A stretch of DNA of 61,905 nt, taken from contig CAZEXI010000006.1 in the NCBI GenBank assembly GCA_964516805.1, forward strand, positions 1 to 61,905, written 5' to 3'. A program made the position numbers and the translations under genes. The notes under the pieces are model-generated. The model saw only the letters and a list, made by a program, of their open reading frames with translations. It did not search any database and had not been told where the DNA came from. Below are positions 26,821 through 33,097 of the stretch, piece by piece. Numbering within the stretch: position 1 is the stretch's first letter; every line of letters starts with the position of its first letter. The DNA comes from an uncultured Thermoplasmata archaeon (GTDB taxonomy: Archaea; Thermoplasmatota; Thermoplasmata; Halarchaeoplasmatales; Halarchaeoplasmataceae).

Positions 26821-28809
26821 TTGAATATAGAAGAGCGGCTTTCGGAAAAAATACAATCGATGAGCAGAGAAGAATTCGAAAAACTCTGCATTGATTTACT
26901 TGAAAAAATGGGATTCAAGATATCTACAGTAAAATCCGTAGGAGGCGATATACAAGTAGAAGCCTCTATTGAAAGAGATGGCGAAAAAAAAGATTACGTT
27001 GTAAAATGTTCTAGAAGGGAGGATATCGAAGATGAAGTAAAGAATCTTGAAGAGATTACAGATGAAAACATCCATGGATTCATCCTGACTCATAAAAGAG
27101 TAAACAAAAGAATCGATTCTACAGTTGAAGTTGCTGGAGTCAAAAATCTTTATAAATTATTGGATAAATTTAACCTCCTAAAAGGGTTGGACCTCGAAGA
27201 AGAAAAAATAAAAAGAGACCAGATCAATAAAATGATGAGTGAAGCAAGAAATCTTTTGAAGAATGATGAGCCAAGAGAAACCATCGACAAGATTATCGAG
27301 ATAATAAAGAAAGATGATAAACTAAAAGAAAGTTGGTTTTTACTATCAAAAGCTTATGATAAAATTGAATCATATGATAATGAAATAGATGCTTTAGAAC
27401 AAGCTTTAGAAATCGATAAAAGGTACTTGGAGGCATGGAGAAATAAAGGTGAAGTTCACTATAAAAAATCAGACTATGACGAAGCCATAAAATGTTTCGA
27501 AAAAGTATTGGAAATAGAACCTGAATCTCCTGAAACATGGAACAATATCGGTCTCTGTTACATGAAAAAGGGTGAGCTCGACCAAGCTTTAAAGTCTCTA
27601 GATAATGCATTATCTCTAGATGAATCTTTTACCAAAGCTTTGATGAACAAAGCACTGATATTTGAAAAACAGGGTAAGATAAATAAAACAACAAAAGTAT
27701 CAGAAAAACTTATAGAAATAGAACCAGACAATCCAGAATACCAATACATCAATGCAGCTTACCTTTATAAAAAAGACGAATACGAAAAATCACTAGAAAG
27801 TATTAACAGAGTCCTAGATATTGATCCAGATAATAAAGAAGCAAGACAACTTAAAGATATTTTAGACCAGCAGATAAAAATAGAAAGAACAGACGAGATG
27901 ATAAAGAAAAATGTTGAGAAGTCAAAATACTCAGACCCTATAAAACAAAGAAGAATCTCTGAAATACTTTGGAAACTTGACGATAATGAGGAAGCGATGA
28001 AATTTGTAAATGAAGATGATGTTATCACCGGATGTATTTTTTACGAAAGAGAAAACGTGGACAAATCAAAGGACATCTTTAAAAAGAACAAAGAAGATAT
28101 TTTTTCAACTATAAACCTTGAAGAGATAAGGTATAAAAACAAAGATAACATAGAATCAAAAAAACTTCTAGAAAATTTAAAATCAGAAAATCTACCGTTC
28201 AAAGAAAAAAGATTACTCACACTGATACAATTGGATCATGATAAAGAAGTTGAAGATCTGTTCAAAAATATATCAGATAAAGATGAGAGACTTATTGATA
28301 TAATAGAGGAGAGATTTAGATACATTATCAGAAATAAAGGTTCTATAGAGGAAATAAAAAAAGAATTAAAAGTTACTGAAGAAAACAGGATCTTGAATCT
28401 ATTGAGTATACTACATTTTGTTAACCACAAAAATGAAGAAAGTATTGATCTTTTAAATAAAGTTACAGATGTAGAAAATCCGATATATTTCAACAATCTT
28501 GGGTGTATACTGTTTAAGATGGGGGAATTTAAAGATTCGCTTAAGTCCTTCGAAAGAACTGTAGAAAAGAATGGAAAAAATCCTGTTTATTTAAACAATT
28601 ATGGCTTCTGCTTGATAGAGGAAGATGAAATAAATAAAGCCTTAGAAAATTTAGAGAAGTCTCTTTCTATTGATGAAGAAAATTACGTTTCTTGGTACTT
28701 CAAGGGAATTGCCCTGAAAAGAGATGATGATAATAACTGGAAAAAATCTATTCAAAAAACTCTTGAGATAAATCCTAATTTTAAGAAAGCGGAAAAGATG
28801 TTAGAATAA
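26821..28809 (+). CDS. Mrr-like restriction-endonuclease-fold N-domain fused to a long TPR array
   Basis: N-terminus FEKLCIDLLEKMGF...GGDIQVEA...YVVKCSRR...GFILTHKR matches the Mrr_cat pattern. After that, many TPR units (AWRNKGEVHYKKSDYDEAIKCFEKVLEIEPE and similar). TTG start preceded by AGGTGA. Confidence 0.65.
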   Translation: MNIEERLSEKIQSMSREEFEKLCIDLLEKMGFKISTVKSVGGDIQVEASIERDGEKKDYVVKCSRREDIEDEVKNLEEITDENIHGFILTHKRVNKRIDSTVEVAGVKNLYKLLDKFNLLKGLDLEEEKIKRDQINKMMSEARNLLKNDEPRETIDKIIEIIKKDDKLKESWFLLSKAYDKIESYDNEIDALEQALEIDKRYLEAWRNKGEVHYKKSDYDEAIKCFEKVLEIEPESPETWNNIGLCYMKKGELDQALKSLDNALSLDESFTKALMNKALIFEKQGKINKTTKVSEKLIEIEPDNPEYQYINAAYLYKKDEYEKSLESINRVLDIDPDNKEARQLKDILDQQIKIERTDEMIKKNVEKSKYSDPIKQRRISEILWKLDDNEEAMKFVNEDDVITGCIFYERENVDKSKDIFKKNKEDIFSTINLEEIRYKNKDNIESKKLLENLKSENLPFKEKRLLTLIQLDHDKEVEDLFKNISDKDERLIDIIEERFRYIIRNKGSIEEIKKELKVTEENRILNLLSILHFVNHKNEESIDLLNKVTDVENPIYFNNLGCILFKMGEFKDSLKSFERTVEKNGKNPVYLNNYGFCLIEEDEINKALENLEKSLSIDEENYVSWYFKGIALKRDDDNNWKKSIQKTLEINPNFKKAEKMLE

Positions 28810-28883
28810 TGCGGTTGCCGGGATTTGAACCCGGGTAGCAAGCTTGGGAAGCTTGAGTCTTAACCAGTCTAGACCACAACCGC
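28810..28883 (-). tRNA. tRNA-Gly (anticodon CCC)
   Basis: Minus strand GCGGUUG-UG-GUCU-AGACUGGUUA-AGAC-U-CAAGC-UUCCCAA-GCUUG-CUAC-CCGGG-UUCAAAU-CCCGG-CAACCGC-A. All four stems are fully paired. Confidence 0.9.
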
Positions 28884-28892
28884 ATAGAATAA

Positions 28893-28925
28893 AAGAGGGG
28901 GACCCCTTGATTTCAAGTGGAAACT
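28893..28925. repeat. left arm of a perfect 33-bp inverted repeat
   Basis: AAGAGGGGGACCCCTTGATTTCAAGTGGAAACT is the exact reverse complement of 31989-32021. Confidence 0.95.
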
Positions 28926-28931
28926 GACAGA

Positions 28932-29315
28932 CTACCGGTCCAAGTTATAATCTTCTTCTTTCTCTATAACTTTATCTTCATATTTTGGCCCTAATTTTAA
29001 GGCCAAGGTTTCGATTCTAGCTATATTCTTTATAAATTTACTCTTGCTCGAAGTCTCGAATAATTCCTTGAATTCGTTCAATTTCCTGTACAGATCTATT
29101 ATCAAATATGCAAATATGAATGTAAATATGCCTCCGATCAATAGCAGCCAATATGACCAATTATCTAGTGTGTTTTCAATCTCGTTTAAAATTCCCGGAG
29201 TATAACCACTTAAGACAGTTCCAAAAAGACCGATAACTAACCCTATTGCACTGACTATCAACAAAATTGGAGCTATAAGAAATTGATTCTTTTTATATTT
29301 TCTTTTCAAACTCAT
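28932..29315 (-). CDS. small membrane protein (two TM helices, charged C-terminal tail)
   Basis: 127 aa with two clear hydrophobic helices. No catalytic motif. Confidence 0.5.
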   Translation of the reverse strand: MSLKRKYKKNQFLIAPILLIVSAIGLVIGLFGTVLSGYTPGILNEIENTLDNWSYWLLLIGGIFTFIFAYLIIDLYRKLNEFKELFETSSKSKFIKNIARIETLALKLGPKYEDKVIEKEEDYNLDR

Positions 29316-29370
29316 AATTACTTTGAATCAAAGAACTTTACTTAAATTTTTTCTTATTAGCAATATCATT

Positions 29371-30759
29371 TCAATGATCATGATGTTCATGAATATGCAA
29401 ATTAGAGAAAGCTCTGTCAACAACTTCACTAAGTGAAGGGTGTATATGCATTCCTCTAAAGATAGGGATAGCACTTTGATCATCGGTATACATTAGATTT
29501 ATTATTTCTTGTATCAAAACTGAAGCCTCTGGTCCTATTATATGTGCCCCTAGAATCCGATAACTTTCCTGTTCAACTATTACTTTCACGAAGTAATCTT
29601 CTAACTCCATAGCTGATCCTTTTGCTGTATTTTCATAACCGTAATAACCTATCATAATATCATGATTTTCTCTTGCTTCTTTCTCTTTCATGCCTACCGA
29701 AGCTATTTCGGGATATGTAAAAACGGCATGGGGCACAGCATGGTAATCAACTTTTCTTCTCATATCTGTAAATCCATTGTAGTAAACCAGTTCGGCTTCA
29801 TAGTTTGCTACATGTTTAAACATGTGTTTACCAGTAGCATCACCAAGGGCCCATATATTGTCTTTAGTAGTTTTTAGATATTCGTTTACTTTTATCCATC
29901 CATCATCTGTAGTTTCGATTCCTGATCTTTCAGGCTTCAAAATATCAGAATTAGACCTTCTTCCTGCAGCGATCAATAGTTTTTCTGAACTTACTTTTAT
30001 CTTATCTCCATCTTTACTCTCTGCATAAACTACTTTTTCTTCAGATTCTTCTTCTACTTTTACTACTTCATATCCTGTTTCAATATTCATATATTGAGAG
30101 AACTTTTCTTCAGCTAAATCCGATACCTCTTCTTCTTCTGAAGGTATAAATTGAGGATTCCTACCAGCTAAAGTTACGTCTGACCCCATCATCGATAAGA
30201 AATAACCATACTCTGCTGCAATATACCCTCCACCTATGATGACCATACTTTCTGGAAGTTCCTCTAGATCTAAGAAAGTTTTACTTGTGAGGTAATCTAC
30301 CTCTTCTATATTTTTAATAGGTGGTATTAAATCCCTTGAACCTGTACCAAGTATAATTTTATCGCCCTTTATCTCTTCGTTCCCAACTTTAAGAATATAG
30401 TCGTCTAAAAATTCAGCATCAGCTTGATAAAAATCAAGGTCTTCACTGTGTTTTAGGTTATTTTCTATCTGCTTACTTTGAGGTATAACATGATCTCTCA
30501 TTCTTTCCATGATTTTCTTAAAATCTATATTATTTATTTCAGCATTTATACCAAATTTATCAGAATCTTTTATATGATTTACCATCTCAGCAGGATATAA
30601 TAACATTTTAGAGGGTATACATCCTCTGGTCAAACAAATTCCACCAGGAGCTTCATTTTCAACAACAGCAATTTTTTTATTGGGATTATCATTCAAAACT
30701 TGAGTTACTATACTCATAGCAGATCCAGTTCCAACAGATATAAGATCATATTCCTTCAT
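29371..30759 (-). CDS. dihydrolipoyl dehydrogenase-family pyridine nucleotide-disulfide oxidoreductase
   Basis: GTGSAM FAD motif, redox-active GGICLTRGCIPSK, NAD motif IIGGGYIAAE, C-terminal HIHPSLSEVV dyad. Confidence 0.8.
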   Translation of the reverse strand: MKEYDLISVGTGSAMSIVTQVLNDNPNKKIAVVENEAPGGICLTRGCIPSKMLLYPAEMVNHIKDSDKFGINAEINNIDFKKIMERMRDHVIPQSKQIENNLKHSEDLDFYQADAEFLDDYILKVGNEEIKGDKIILGTGSRDLIPPIKNIEEVDYLTSKTFLDLEELPESMVIIGGGYIAAEYGYFLSMMGSDVTLAGRNPQFIPSEEEEVSDLAEEKFSQYMNIETGYEVVKVEEESEEKVVYAESKDGDKIKVSSEKLLIAAGRRSNSDILKPERSGIETTDDGWIKVNEYLKTTKDNIWALGDATGKHMFKHVANYEAELVYYNGFTDMRRKVDYHAVPHAVFTYPEIASVGMKEKEARENHDIMIGYYGYENTAKGSAMELEDYFVKVIVEQESYRILGAHIIGPEASVLIQEIINLMYTDDQSAIPIFRGMHIHPSLSEVVDRAFSNLHIHEHHDH

Positions 30760-30859
30760 GTTATCCCTTTCCTAATAAATATAAACTGACATAATAAATC
30801 TTGCCTTTAGCTATTCACAAAAAGATAAAAAATTTAAACCACCGAACGATACCGGTAAT

Positions 30860-31963
30860 ATGAAAGAAACAGCCCTTCACTCAAATCATGTAGAAGCTGG
30901 AGCTAAGATGACAGGATTTGGCGGTTATGACATGCCATTACAGTTTGAAGGAATAATCGAAGAACATATGGCGGTAAGAGAAGAAGCAGGAATTTTTGAT
31001 GTATCTCATATGGGAGAGATACTCCTAAAAGGGGATGGAGCTATAGAGTTTATGAGCGAACACTGTACTCAGGACATCACCGATTCGGAGATCGATCAGA
31101 TAAAATATGCTCATATACTTAATGAAGATGGAGGAATACTAGACGATACTCTTGTCAATAGACTTTCACAAAATTCATGTTATATAGTACCAAACGCGGG
31201 AAATAATGAAGAAATATACAATTTTCTTGCAGAAAAAGGAGGAAAAGAATATCTACAAGATATAACGGACAAGACATCGATGTTTGCACTTCAAGGTCCT
31301 AAAGCAGAAAAAATGATGTCAAAAGTATGTGATGAAGATGTATCAGATATTGGTTTTTTTAAAGGAAAAAAAATCAGGATAAACGATGAAGTGATGGATG
31401 CTTTTGACGAGGAATGGCCGATGGGTGATAAACCGATTGTTCAAAAAACTGGATATACTGGTGAAGACGGTTTTGAGATAGCTATCCCAAATGAAGCAGG
31501 AAAAGTACTTTGGGAACAGTTCATGGATCTAGAGAATCCTCCAACAAAATGCGGGTTAGGTGCTAGAGATACTTTAAGATTGGAATTTGGTTTCTTATTA
31601 GCTGGACAAGATTTCGATGAAACTAGGACAACTATAGAAACTGGTTGGGAAAAACAATCAATAGATTGGGATCATGATTTCTTAGGTAAAGAGAAACTTA
31701 AAGATGTAAAAGAATCTGATCATCAGATGCTTAAAGGTATGATAATGGAAGGTAATGGTATACCAAGACACGGATATGATATATATGATGGTGAGGAGAA
31801 GATAGGAGTAGTTACAAGTGGAACAAGGTCGCCAGTACTTGAGAAAGGAATAGCTATGGGATATCTAGATCCTGGCTATCATGAAGAAGGTACAAAAGTT
31901 CAGATAGAGATCAGAGGAGAGAAAAAGAAGGCTAAAATCAAAAATCCTCCCTTTATAAAATAA
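30860..31963 (+). CDS. gcvT: glycine cleavage system aminomethyltransferase (T protein)
   Basis: AGIFDVSHMGE, GYTGEDGFEI and GLGARDTLRLE motifs. Confidence 0.9.
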   Translation: MKETALHSNHVEAGAKMTGFGGYDMPLQFEGIIEEHMAVREEAGIFDVSHMGEILLKGDGAIEFMSEHCTQDITDSEIDQIKYAHILNEDGGILDDTLVNRLSQNSCYIVPNAGNNEEIYNFLAEKGGKEYLQDITDKTSMFALQGPKAEKMMSKVCDEDVSDIGFFKGKKIRINDEVMDAFDEEWPMGDKPIVQKTGYTGEDGFEIAIPNEAGKVLWEQFMDLENPPTKCGLGARDTLRLEFGFLLAGQDFDETRTTIETGWEKQSIDWDHDFLGKEKLKDVKESDHQMLKGMIMEGNGIPRHGYDIYDGEEKIGVVTSGTRSPVLEKGIAMGYLDPGYHEEGTKVQIEIRGEKKKAKIKNPPFIK

Positions 31964-31988
31964 TAATAACAAACCCGCGGGTGTGTGT

Positions 31989-32021
31989 AGTTTCCACTTG
32001 AAATCAAGGGGTCCCCCTCTT
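31989..32021. repeat. right arm of the perfect 33-bp inverted repeat
   Basis: AGTTTCCACTTGAAATCAAGGGGTCCCCCTCTT, the reverse complement of 28893-28925. Confidence 0.95.
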
Positions 32022-32038
32022 AACGTAGGTGATATAAA

Positions 32039-33097
32039 ATGGAAAAATTAGAAGGATTAGATGTATTTAAGGAAATATTGATGGAACCAGGTGTTTCAGG
32101 TTATGAAGGACCGATAAGAAAAAAGATAAAAGGATTGATACTGGACTATGCTGAAGTAAAAGATTCAGAGAATATAAGAGAAGATAATATAGGTAACCTC
32201 ATATACGAGCAGGAGAAAGAAGGACCTTCCGTTGCACTTGTAGCACATATGGATGAAATTGGTATGGTAGTATCAAACATAGAAGATGACGGTTTCCTAA
32301 GGATTAAGAAAATTGGCGGTATTATGGACGCACTGCTTCCGGGAAGAAACGTTACCATACACTCAGAAAAAGGTCCTATAAATGGTGTAATTGGTCACAA
32401 ACCACCTCATCTAACAACTGATAAAGATAGTGATGATAAAGTAACTCCTTGGACTAAGACTAGAGTCGATGTAGGTGCGTCCTCATCTGAAGAAGTTAAA
32501 GAACTAGGAATAGATGTTCCAGATCCAATAACATTCGATAAGAAACTGTTAAGGCTTGCAGGAAGTAAAATCACAGGAAGAGGGATGGACAACAGGATAG
32601 GTTCATATACTCTCTTGGAAACACTAAAGAATCTCAAAGAAGAAGAGCTGCAAATTTCTCCTTCCTATGTCTGGAGTGTACAGGAAGAGATCGGACTCAG
32701 GGGTGCCAAAGTTGTTGCTAACACCCTCAAACCAGATTATGTTATTGCCCTCGACACGTATACTACATCTGATATGCCTGGTGCAGAACAGTTTTACAAA
32801 CCTATTAAATTTGGAGAAGGTCCAGTACTAAGGATGGTAGACACCAGAGCGATATCAACTCCAAAGATGGTAAAACACTTCAAAAAAGTAGCAGAAGAAA
32901 AAGACATACCTTACCAATATGGTGTAACAGGAGGAACTACAGATGGCATGGCACTTCAGGAATCGGGGTGTCCTACTATATCTATCGGAGTACCAGTAAG
33001 ATATTCTCATTCAACAGTAGAGGTAGCCGATTGGGAAGACGTCAAAAATCTTATCAAATTGATCAGAGAAGGCATGAAAGATCTGCCTCTCGAATAA
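32039..33097 (+). CDS. M42 family (TET/FrvX) aminopeptidase
   Basis: VAHMDEIG, GRGMDNR, QEEIGLRGA and GGTTDG motifs. Confidence 0.85.
   Translation: MEKLEGLDVFKEILMEPGVSGYEGPIRKKIKGLILDYAEVKDSENIREDNIGNLIYEQEKEGPSVALVAHMDEIGMVVSNIEDDGFLRIKKIGGIMDALLPGRNVTIHSEKGPINGVIGHKPPHLTTDKDSDDKVTPWTKTRVDVGASSSEEVKELGIDVPDPITFDKKLLRLAGSKITGRGMDNRIGSYTLLETLKNLKEEELQISPSYVWSVQEEIGLRGAKVVANTLKPDYVIALDTYTTSDMPGAEQFYKPIKFGEGPVLRMVDTRAISTPKMVKHFKKVAEEKDIPYQYGVTGGTTDGMALQESGCPTISIGVPVRYSHSTVEVADWEDVKNLIKLIREGMKDLPLE

Follow-up and report, generated by a model that had tools for sequence, protein, structure and literature searches.

A widely spaced, inverted pair of predicted origin recognition boxes, unlinked from orc1/cdc6, is conserved in a family of Thermoplasmata archaea

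The stretch of DNA analysed here (the window), a 61,905-nt contig of an uncultured archaeon of the Thermoplasmata family Halarchaeoplasmataceae, carries two identical 33-nt arms in inverted orientation around a block of three genes, and each arm is very probably a full-length archaeal origin recognition box (ORB), that is, a predicted Orc1/Cdc6 site. ORBs and Orc1-dependent origins are already textbook matter; in the usual layout, two boxes are separated by a short AT-rich gap and adjoin the initiator gene. What is new here is that the only inverted ORB pair of the lineage spans 3 kb, surrounds metabolic genes and lies apart from orc1, yet has been kept in 10 genera. We regard the chances that this pair still marks an active chromosomal replication origin as evenly balanced.

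The arm on the tRNA side (arm T; 28893..28925, minus strand) has a 20-nt core at 28903-28922, a G-string at 28903-28906 and a C-run at 28897-28901, and reads AGT-TTCCACTTGAAATCAAGGGG-T-CCCCC-TCTT on the minus strand. The identical arm on the side of the M42 peptidase gene (arm M; 31989..32021, plus strand) has its core at 31992-32011, its G-string at 32008-32011 and its C-run at 32013-32017. The arms are complementary at 33 of 33 positions with 3063 nt between them, which confirms the perfect inverted repeat around a 3.1-kb block described in an earlier, sequence-only reading. That reading also held that each arm contains what look like protein-binding sites, in agreement with the ORB match, although their ORB nature was not recognised. 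The ORB sequence of each arm, TTTCCACTTGAAATCAAGGGGT, is followed by the C-run and consists of a dyad-like TTCCA-N3-GAAA, a 4-nt spacer and the G-string GGGG(T), the C-run being an extension in this lineage. Seventeen of the 22 positions of TTTCCACTTGAAATCAAGGGGT are identical to ORB2 of 'Ca. M. alvus' and to the Methanomassiliicoccales consensus, and the orc1-proximal copy described below agrees with M. alvus ORB3 at 20 of 22 (sequences from PMC4153887, Table 2). Two small palindromes noted earlier in each arm fared differently: GGGG-N-CCCC is kept in relatives as GGGG-T/TCT-CCCCC, whereas CTTGA-NN-TCAAG is replaced there by CATGAAATATAG, CACGAAATAAAG and similar sequences.

The repeat is confined to this pair. 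With up to 3 mismatches, the 33-mer occurs twice in the window, compared with no occurrence in 100 dinucleotide shuffles; across the 2.32-Mb assembly there are still only 2 copies when as many as 10 mismatches are allowed, and the same holds for each sub-word of 9-17 nt. A dispersed repeat or MITE was rejected on this genome-wide count. Contigs from four DNA runs contain both arms. In a scan of the whole assembly with the family PWM, arms T and M scored 39.5 bits each, and the remaining matches were one of 34.2 bits upstream of orc1/cdc6 and one of 21.9 bits inside coding sequence; the reversed-genome control gave no match of 12 bits or more. The weakest of the four (contig C122) falls in a coding sequence (..VIPPEMLGL..) that is conserved in the genus and was treated as a coding or chance match.

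The third ORB precedes the conserved orc1/cdc6 gene of contig C3 by 52 nt (Cdc6_C match of 105-108 bits). Cdc6_C matches sit on contigs C3, C40 and C46, and the same search found no orc1/cdc6 gene on the 62-kb contig that carries the pair (C6); near the two orc1 paralogues on C40 and C46 there are no origin-type repeat clusters. In all 16 genomes tested, the family's single ORB copy precedes Orc1 at a distance of 33-100 nt. At the orc1 locus of 17 genomes this ORB is solitary, with no partner of at least 6 bits within 2.5 kb, so these genomes have no inverted ORB pair other than that of the gcv locus. The 20 pair loci contain no additional ORB match of at least 6 bits except one of 6.6 bits. 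The two kinds of site also differ in sequence, the C-run extension being present in 44 of 44 pair arms versus 0 of 16 orc1-proximal ORBs of the family.

Three genes lie between the arms, and their identities, like that of the M42 peptidase gene outside, were borne out by Pfam. Next to arm T, with 6 nt from its stop codon to the arm, is a gene for a DUF3198 small membrane protein resembling Ta0354 (28932..29315, minus strand; Pfam PF11433, E 1.2e-8; PDB 1x9b, a Ta0354 fragment, E 0.004), a kind of gene that has an ORB as its neighbour in 7 or more families of Thermoplasmata. It is followed by an lpd-like pyridine-nucleotide disulphide oxidoreductase gene (29371..30759, minus strand; Pyr_redox_2 and Pyr_redox_dim) and, divergently, by the aminomethyltransferase gene gcvT (30860..31963, plus strand; GCV_T and GCV_T_C), whose stop codon precedes arm M by 25 nt. 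Transcription heads outward both ways from the 100-nt lpd/gcvT intergenic region (30760..30859), the sole sizeable non-coding DNA between the arms. The RNA data for the locus come from one run of an oligo-dT library with thin coverage. Outside the pair, tRNA-Gly(CCC) (minus strand; 28809..28884 by ARAGORN, 28810-28883 by Rfam, tRNA model, 65 bits) begins 8-9 nt past arm T, and the ATG of the M42 (TET-type) aminopeptidase gene (32039..33097, plus strand; Peptidase_M42, E 3.8e-94) lies 17 nt beyond arm M; both are transcribed away from the pair. These spacings, and the same polarity of both arms relative to their neighbours, were as the earlier reading had given them (9 nt in the case of the tRNA).

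This layout is stable across the family. The order tRNA-Gly < ORB < DUF3198 < lpd | gcvT > ORB > M42 is found in 31 of 31 family loci (sets of 20 and 11) from 10 genera, the ORB pair brackets DUF3198-lpd-gcvT in 20 of the 20 loci of the larger set, and in every family locus arm M separates the gcvT stop from the M42 start, so that the association of the repeat with this block, a matter of synteny raised by the earlier reading, is conserved. The pattern TTCCANNNGAAANNNNGGGG was found in 39 of 41 family genomes, compared with 4 matches in total for the reversed control pattern, and a family genome usually has a (-,+) pair with a spacing of 3.0-3.8 kb and, in addition, a single copy. Class-wide, every listed same-contig ORB pair (about 50, of which 23 are from other families) is likewise (-,+), with spacings of 0.5-10 kb and flanking either orc1 or DUF3198; 2 further contigs have same-strand ORBs instead. 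In sister families, the ORB corresponding to arm M sits within the gcvT coding sequence, and in two of them (G056, G037) one member of the pair is the ORB immediately before orc1, and DUF3198, gcvT and M42 are neighbours. By position, the pair described here is thus orthologous to the one that adjoins orc1/cdc6 in sister families of Thermoplasmata. Within genomes the two arms evolve in concert, and because of this homogenisation, in which occasional gene conversion between the arms would keep them alike, they match here at 33 of 33 positions; of the duplication, gene conversion or selection formerly invoked for this identity, selection plus gene conversion is the combination that fits.

A chromosomal replication origin is the likeliest role of the pair, and given its observed motif identity, rarity, conservation and orientation, an origin at this site would involve Orc1 binding, MCM loading and firing in the following manner. 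The TTCCA ends of the arms face each other and the G-strings point outward. Judging from solved Orc1-ORB complexes, each arm would be occupied by a single Orc1/Cdc6 monomer with fixed polarity, which would place its winged helix on the TTCCA...GAAA part and its AAA+ initiator-specific motif on the G/C tract. With Orc1 on both boxes, MCM would then be brought to the 3.1 kb between them, possibly to the divergent lpd/gcvT promoter region, which would be the candidate unwinding site if the pair is an origin. More broadly, and only tentatively, we suggest that this haloalkaliphilic family, together with much of the class in variant forms, replicates from a 'stretched' origin of two single, extended ORBs, 3 kb apart and unlinked from orc1. 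Helicase loading or unwinding would then take place inside or between the actively transcribed genes of two divergent units, perhaps with the help of negative supercoiling in the region between the lpd promoter and the gcvT promoter. In this it would resemble the loading of MCM by yeast ORC, for which inverted sites may lie apart.

Several measures of origin activity were examined. The 3063 nt between the arms hold three genes, with 100 nt as the largest gap, and no AT-rich non-coding unwinding element; the lpd/gcvT intergenic region, at 71% A+T compared with 65% locally, is not exceptional, and the richest 80-nt windows between the arms (81-84% A+T) are equalled in the flanks. Fourfold-site GC skew (lead minus lag, pooled over 12 family genomes) was -0.037 +/- 0.016 at the pair, with no origin-type switch, and +0.003 +/- 0.016 at the family's orc1 locus, again with no such switch; in the controls, three origins gave +0.109, +0.033 and -0.017, and with a switch at one of the three the test is low in power. 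The control with the switch, G078, has an orc1-flanking, kilobase-spaced ORB pair that coincides with a clear change of strand skew (+0.109 +/- 0.017). Genes pointing away from the pair within 20 kb amount to about 38%, compared with 58-61% at control origins, a figure that, owing to the synteny common to the genomes, counts as roughly one observation. At the family's orc1 locus, 57% of genes point away (203 versus 150), which is origin-like.

Established and predicted archaeal origins resemble the pair in different respects. In Haloarcula hispanica, two inverted ORBs with their G-strings outermost show the same (-,+) polarity at the experimentally defined oriC1 (minimal origin oriC1m), a conserved ancestral type of origin in which G/C-rich repeats accompany the boxes; the left G-string is CCCCCC and the right one GGGGGGGG, and neither an ORB nor a G-string is dispensable (Wu et al. 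2014, PMC3936714). Those ORBs, however, enclose a short non-coding, AT-rich stretch that immediately precedes cdc6A, whereas the pair described here is 3.1 kb wide, encloses three genes and is unlinked from orc1, and its extension is a C-run after GGGGT instead of a longer G-run. The predicted Methanomassiliicoccales origins belong to the same class, Thermoplasmata, and their box is almost identical, GTTCCAGTGGAAATGG-AGGGGTA, to which GGGGGT may be added (Borrel et al. 2014, PMC4153887, Table 2). There too, outward ORBs lie kilobases apart around a gene, as we confirmed in three genomes (G096, G119, G078). In that order, however, orc1/cdc6.1 is enclosed and two of the sites carry ORB doublets, whereas here DUF3198, lpd and gcvT are enclosed, there is a single ORB per side, and orc1 is on another contig. 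At oriC1 of Sulfolobus/Saccharolobus, which adjoins orc1-1, Orc1-1 monomers bind inverted ORBs with defined polarity, the inner ORBs belong to a 130-bp ORB3-DUE-ORB2 region with a ucm/UBP site, each of these inner ORBs is needed in its own right, and MCM is brought to the DNA between them (PMC12141716). The inverted ORBs with defined polarity are shared with our pair, but no ucm-like element or DUE was identified between its arms.

An alternative that we consider quite possible, though we would not favour it, is that the arms are genuine Orc1/Cdc6 ORBs at an ancestral origin site, that replication now starts elsewhere, and that the boxes are kept for a role other than initiation. The skew and the gene orientation are both unsupportive of an origin at the pair, while the orientation at the orc1 locus is origin-like, and the lack of a DUE-like region between the arms points the same way. 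All three ORBs of the genome lie directly upstream of a gene and co-oriented with it (orc1, tRNA-Gly and M42), and arm T holds the place of the TATA-like box of other tRNA genes: in a comparison of the upstream regions of all 34 tRNA genes of the genome, the others carry a TTATATA-type box around -35, which tRNA-Gly(CCC) lacks. Candidate roles include Orc1-dependent control or road-block of the outward transcripts into tRNA-Gly and M42, chromosome organisation, and titration or sequestration of the initiator, as at datA and oriC2D. In E. coli, datA is an initiator titration site. Like the boxes at datA and oriC2D, which lie outside the unwinding region and act on initiation without being start sites, the orc1-detached pair could have such a role; titration would, however, lead one to expect a dense cluster adjoining the initiator gene, such as oriC2D of H. 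hispanica with its 11 ORBs in 722 bp, whereas here there are exactly two single boxes 3 kb apart in strict inverted orientation. ORBs with a negative regulatory, non-origin role have been published (PMC3936714). On the other hand, a role outside initiation leaves unexplained why the inverted, origin-type orientation is strictly conserved and why the extended G/C tract is kept only at the pair, and it would leave the family without any inverted ORB pair. The distances from box to gene also vary, both to the M42 ATG and to the tRNA, and this speaks against promoter or operator sites of fixed geometry.

This variation bears equally on the proposal, made in the sequence-only reading, of a shared promoter or operator for tRNA-Gly and the peptidase. 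In archaeal BRE/TATA promoters the transcript start follows the centre of the TATA box at a constant spacing of about 24-27 nt. In 21 genomes the distance from the G-string to the tRNA +1 ranges from 8 to 26 nt, and a start at fixed geometry would fall inside the tRNA in several of them, a geometry at odds with arm T as a promoter for tRNA-Gly. It is improbable that the arms serve a factor unrelated to Orc1, binding for instance GGGG-T-CCCCC and co-regulating tRNA-Gly(CCC) and M42, perhaps in response to glycine, with the likeness to ORBs a coincidence. Such a factor would suit the glycine-related neighbours (gcvT, lpd and tRNA-Gly) and the GGGG-N(1-3)-CCCC(C) palindrome, which occurs in 44 of 44 arms and is absent at orc1-proximal ORBs. 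However, the conserved part spans the whole ORB core, which elsewhere in the genome occurs only upstream of orc1; sister families show GGGGT-GGGGG at the same positions and not the palindrome, and one of their arms is the orc1-proximal ORB itself; and the varying spacing to the downstream genes fits such a regulator poorly.

The earlier reading also suggested recombination sites and a terminator. It is very improbable that the arms serve for recombination of a 3.1-kb cassette, invertible or formerly mobile, beside a tRNA gene, or that they act as bidirectional terminator elements: perfect inverted repeats around a gene block near a tRNA gene, each directly after a stop codon, recall these and the short perfect repeats around a few kilobases in Hin/Gin/Cin invertible segments and MITE/IS ends, but here the repeat is the lineage's initiator box, no recombinase (as the earlier reading had remarked of the block) or transposase, target-site duplication or further copy was found, gene order and orientation relative to the flanks are the same in the 31 family loci, one DNA contig spans arm M in the reference orientation, no inversion joints appeared in four metagenome runs (a weak test on assembled Logan contigs, which break at the 33-mer), and, as to termination, the RNA folds no better than shuffles (z +0.32, +0.59 and +0.48), relatives have no conserved U-tract, and the only Rfam match is the tRNA.

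Whichever way the pair acts, DUF3198, a family of unknown function, gains a conserved genomic address beside ORBs. If the pair does not fire, it would provide a clean natural case of initiator boxes retained for another purpose. If it does fire, archaeal helicase loading would tolerate kilobase spacing and intervening transcription, and the pair would be a counter-example for origin-prediction tools that seek ORBs beside orc1. Should replication of the family indeed begin from boxes so far apart, archaeal Orc1 would establish bidirectional replication from distant inverted sites.

The two 33-nt arms, one on the tRNA-Gly side (28893-28925, minus strand; arm T) and the other on the M42 side (31989-32021, plus strand; arm M), are complementary at 33/33 positions with 3063 nt between them, which upholds the perfect inverted repeat described in the sequence-only reading, together with the neighbouring genes and distances it gave. 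On the minus strand, tRNA-Gly(CCC) begins 8-9 nt past the left arm, and on the inner side of that arm, 6 nt away, lies the stop codon of a gene for a 127-aa DUF3198 membrane protein (28932-29315, minus strand). A 100-nt gap separates the divergent genes for an lpd-like flavoprotein and gcvT, the gcvT stop falls 25 nt ahead of the right arm, and the M42 aminopeptidase ATG lies 17 nt past it; all genes within the pair and those directly outside are transcribed outward from the central gap. A gene fusing an Mrr_cat nuclease domain to a long TPR array (26821-28809, plus strand) adjoins tRNA-Gly and keeps this position in many relatives. With up to three mismatches, the 33-mer occurs twice in the window compared with 0 occurrences in 100 shuffles, and the whole assembly (2.32 Mb, 161 contigs, 36% G+C, 89% complete) holds the same two copies even when 10 mismatches are allowed, as is also the case for each sub-word tested, which rules out a dispersed multi-copy repeat.

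Read toward the flanking gene, each arm has the form AGT-TTCCACTTGAAATCAAGGGG-T-CCCCC-TCTT, and by sequence comparison its central 22 nt are very probably an archaeal origin recognition box (ORB), the site of the initiator Orc1/Cdc6. The published archaeal consensus is CTTCCAGTGGAAACGAAAGGGGT, and that of the Methanomassiliicoccales, members of the same class, is GTTCCAGTGGAAATGG-AGGGGTA (PMC4153887, Table 2); the arm matches the latter, as well as ORB2 of 'Ca. M. alvus', at 17/22 positions. A genome search with the degenerate pattern TTCCANNNGAAANNNNGGGG gave four matches, namely, the two arms, a copy on contig C3 (TTCCACTTGAAACAAAGGGG) and a weaker copy on contig C122. Scored with a position weight matrix derived from 64 family copies, the arms reach 39.5 bits, the C3 copy, which is proximal to orc1, 34.2 bits, the C122 copy 21.9 bits and the next best match 12.5 bits, and the reversed genome yielded no match of at least 12 bits. 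The C122 match (TTCCACCTGAAAAACTGGGG; C122:338-357, minus strand) is conserved in the genus (L092:2501-2520; L091:1327-1346); it lies within a 354-aa conserved coding sequence (..DNGVIPPEMLGLKEEYY..) and is probably a coding coincidence and not a functional box.

The same pattern is present in 39 of 41 family genomes, whereas its reversed control gave four matches altogether, and the usual arrangement is one (-,+) pair with a spacing of 3.0-3.8 kb plus a single copy on another contig. The association with the enclosed block, which the earlier reading had proposed to trace in relatives, is retained: the layout M42 < ORB < gcvT < / lpd > DUF3198 > ORB > tRNA-Gly (arrowheads giving direction) recurs in 20/20 fetched pair loci and in 11 loci found via the DUF3198 protein, never inverted relative to the flanks. 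Conservation is sharply bounded: the identity of a genome's two arms is 0.83 across the 33 nt and falls to about 0.24, the random level, in the adjacent 12-18 nt. Conservation of at least 90% extends to columns that the search pattern did not cover, in particular the T and C-run that follow the G-string. This C-run (GGGG-T or TCT-CCCCC) is found in 44/44 pair arms versus 0/16 orc1-proximal boxes. Of the two small palindromes noted in each arm, the GGGG/CCCC one is conserved in relatives, whereas CTTGA-NN-TCAAG is peculiar to the window's genus. The two extended boxes are retained in all ten genera sampled, and we consider the pair to be real, strongly selected boxes at which initiator binding is predicted. 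The kind of element is already known; the architecture of the pair is new. Among the papers searched, none connects ORBs to gcvT and none treats origins in 'Saliniplasma'.

Six unconstrained core positions vary among genomes, yet in 10 of 22 genomes the two arms share the same 20-nt core; identity is higher within genomes (0.83) than between them (0.78), a difference not reached in any of 10,000 permutations. The variants common to the arms are missing from the orc1-proximal box, so that co-evolution with Orc1 alone is insufficient as an explanation, and episodic gene conversion between the arms accounts for their likeness within a genome. In one genus, for example, the arms of locus L071 differ, and those of L072 and L073 both carry the M-type sequence. 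This pattern, along with differences between the arms at 4-6 of 33 positions in two congeners of the window genome, shows that the 33/33 identity in the window is recent homogenisation on top of strong purifying selection.

The C3 box (C3:43599-43618, minus strand; L020:3600-3619), which matches M. alvus ORB3 at 20/22 positions, precedes by 52 nt, in the same orientation, a 427-aa orc1/cdc6 gene encoding Cdc6 lid and Cdc6_C winged-helix domains. It is solitary and without the C-run, with a TATA-like GAATAAAATA between box and gene and a 290-nt gap of 70% A+T on its other side, a layout that suggests Orc1 autoregulation. In 16/16 family genomes tested, the gene for the conserved Orc1 (76-98% identical in amino acids to the window genome's protein) has a single co-oriented ORB 33-100 nt upstream, and no inverted partner of at least 6 bits was found within 2.5 kb of this box across 17 family genomes. 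Two more Orc1/Cdc6 paralogues are encoded in the window's genome, one embedded in a tight gene cluster (C40:4911-5177; L022) and the other, with a weak Cdc6_C match of 24 bits, in a stretch poor in ORFs and rich in A+T, possibly a mobile element (C46:1415-1639; L023); no ORB-type repeats were found near either.

Most tRNA genes of the genome are preceded by an A-rich stretch and a TTATATA-like box centred near -35. tRNA-Gly(CCC) has the ORB in place of this box (28885-28925), and in some relatives the gene begins 8-9 nt past the G-string; together, these features suggest that tRNA-Gly is matured from the lpd-DUF3198 transcript. Separately, ARAGORN reported two tRNA-like genes whose anticodon loops could not be assigned (tRNA-???; C13:36504 and C18:12665), which may be intron-containing or atypical tRNAs.

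Across a class scan of 121 genomes, every same-contig ORB pair among those listed (about 50, of which 23 lie outside the family) is (-,+), with the G-strings pointing outward and a spacing of 0.53-10 kb; two further contigs instead carry two same-strand ORBs. The minimal oriC1 of Haloarcula hispanica, as defined by experiment, has this polarity: its top strand reads CCCCCC at the left G-string and GGGGGGGG at the right, and neither ORB and neither G-string is dispensable (PMC3936714).

Whether the pair is active as a replication origin appears, on the sequence evidence, evenly balanced. In favour of activity, the gcv-locus pair is the only inverted ORB pair in family genomes, the box at the orc1 locus being solitary in 17 genomes, the genes within and next to the pair are transcribed outward, and in the origins of Sulfolobus (PMC12141716) and Haloarcula (PMC3936714) each of two inverted ORBs is required for activity. 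The extended G/C tract is kept only at the pair and not at the orc1-proximal box, and such an extended G tract is essential in Haloarcula (PMC3936714). In the Methanomassiliicoccales-like control genome G078, a kilobase-spaced outward pair coincides with a strand switch (fourfold-site GC skew, leading minus lagging, +0.109 +/- 0.017). Against activity, no unwinding-element-like DNA was found between the arms of the window. Pooled fourfold-site skew (flanks L108-L127 and L146-L164) was -0.037 +/- 0.016 at the pair in 12 family genomes, showing no origin-type switch, and +0.003 +/- 0.016 at the orc1 locus in 11. Two of the three skew controls had little or no skew, so the family may simply not record replication in its composition, and composition-based origin finders probably fail on these genomes. 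Of the genes within 20 kb of the pair, only about 38% point away from it; control origins give 58-61% and the orc1 locus of the family 57%. Because synteny is shared, the figure for the pair counts as roughly a single observation.

A serious alternative, possible though somewhat doubtful, is that Orc1 binds the pair without initiating replication, serving in titration, in controlling the outward transcripts in an autoregulatory manner or as a road-block, or in chromosome organisation. Each of the three boxes immediately precedes a gene of the same orientation, arm T stands where other tRNA genes of the genome have their TTATATA-type box, and a negative regulatory role has been described for ORB clusters (PMC3936714). 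Against this reading, the distance from box to tRNA ranges between 8 and 26 nt, a titration locus would be expected to hold many closely packed boxes, and the strictly kept origin-type orientation would go unexplained. That the GGGG-T-CCCCC palindrome is the target of a transcription factor unrelated to Orc1 is improbable, given that sister families carry GGGGT-GGGGG at the same place and that the entire ORB core is conserved. Least probable are the recombination sites of an invertible or mobile cassette, and the terminators, that the sequence-only reading had entertained, considering that there is no recombinase, no further copy and no orientation polymorphism across family loci, that four DNA runs gave no inversion joints, with one contig crossing arm M in the reference orientation (weak evidence, from assembled contigs only), and that folding of the arms as RNA does not surpass that of shuffled sequence (z +0.3 to +0.6).

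The origin-type reading of the pair draws on gene order in other families. In Methanomassiliicoccales-like genomes, the pair encloses orc1 itself, and ORB pairs around orc1 were reported by Borrel et al. (PMC4153887). The order in G056 is M42 < gcvT < (ORB within gcvT), DUF3198 >, orf >, ORB > orc1 >, and that in G037 is orc1 < ORB < DUF3198 < gcvT > ... ORB >. In G110 (L096:3061-3080), the right ORB lies in frame within gcvT, as checked by translation, and encodes ..DTVPVETEGWVSL.., which falls inside an insertion relative to the window genome's GcvT; one ORB of the pair likewise lies within, and co-oriented with, gcvT in G131 (L097:4849-4868) and G056 (L098:2005-2024), judging from HSP coordinates only. 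At such loci, the initiator box doubles as coding sequence. Whatever else the pair encloses, in at least seven Thermoplasmata families an ORB has a DUF3198 gene as its immediate neighbour (L095:2124-2510, L100:2040-2498, L104:2168-2542, L096:2106-2441, L098:3464-3799, L099:2751-3095); its Ta0354-like product (PDB 1x9b fragment) is a conserved origin-box neighbour of unassigned function. These arrangements identify the window pair as the positional orthologue of an orc1-linked ORB pair: in this family, orc1 lies elsewhere with one unextended box, and the two extended boxes remained at the former location.
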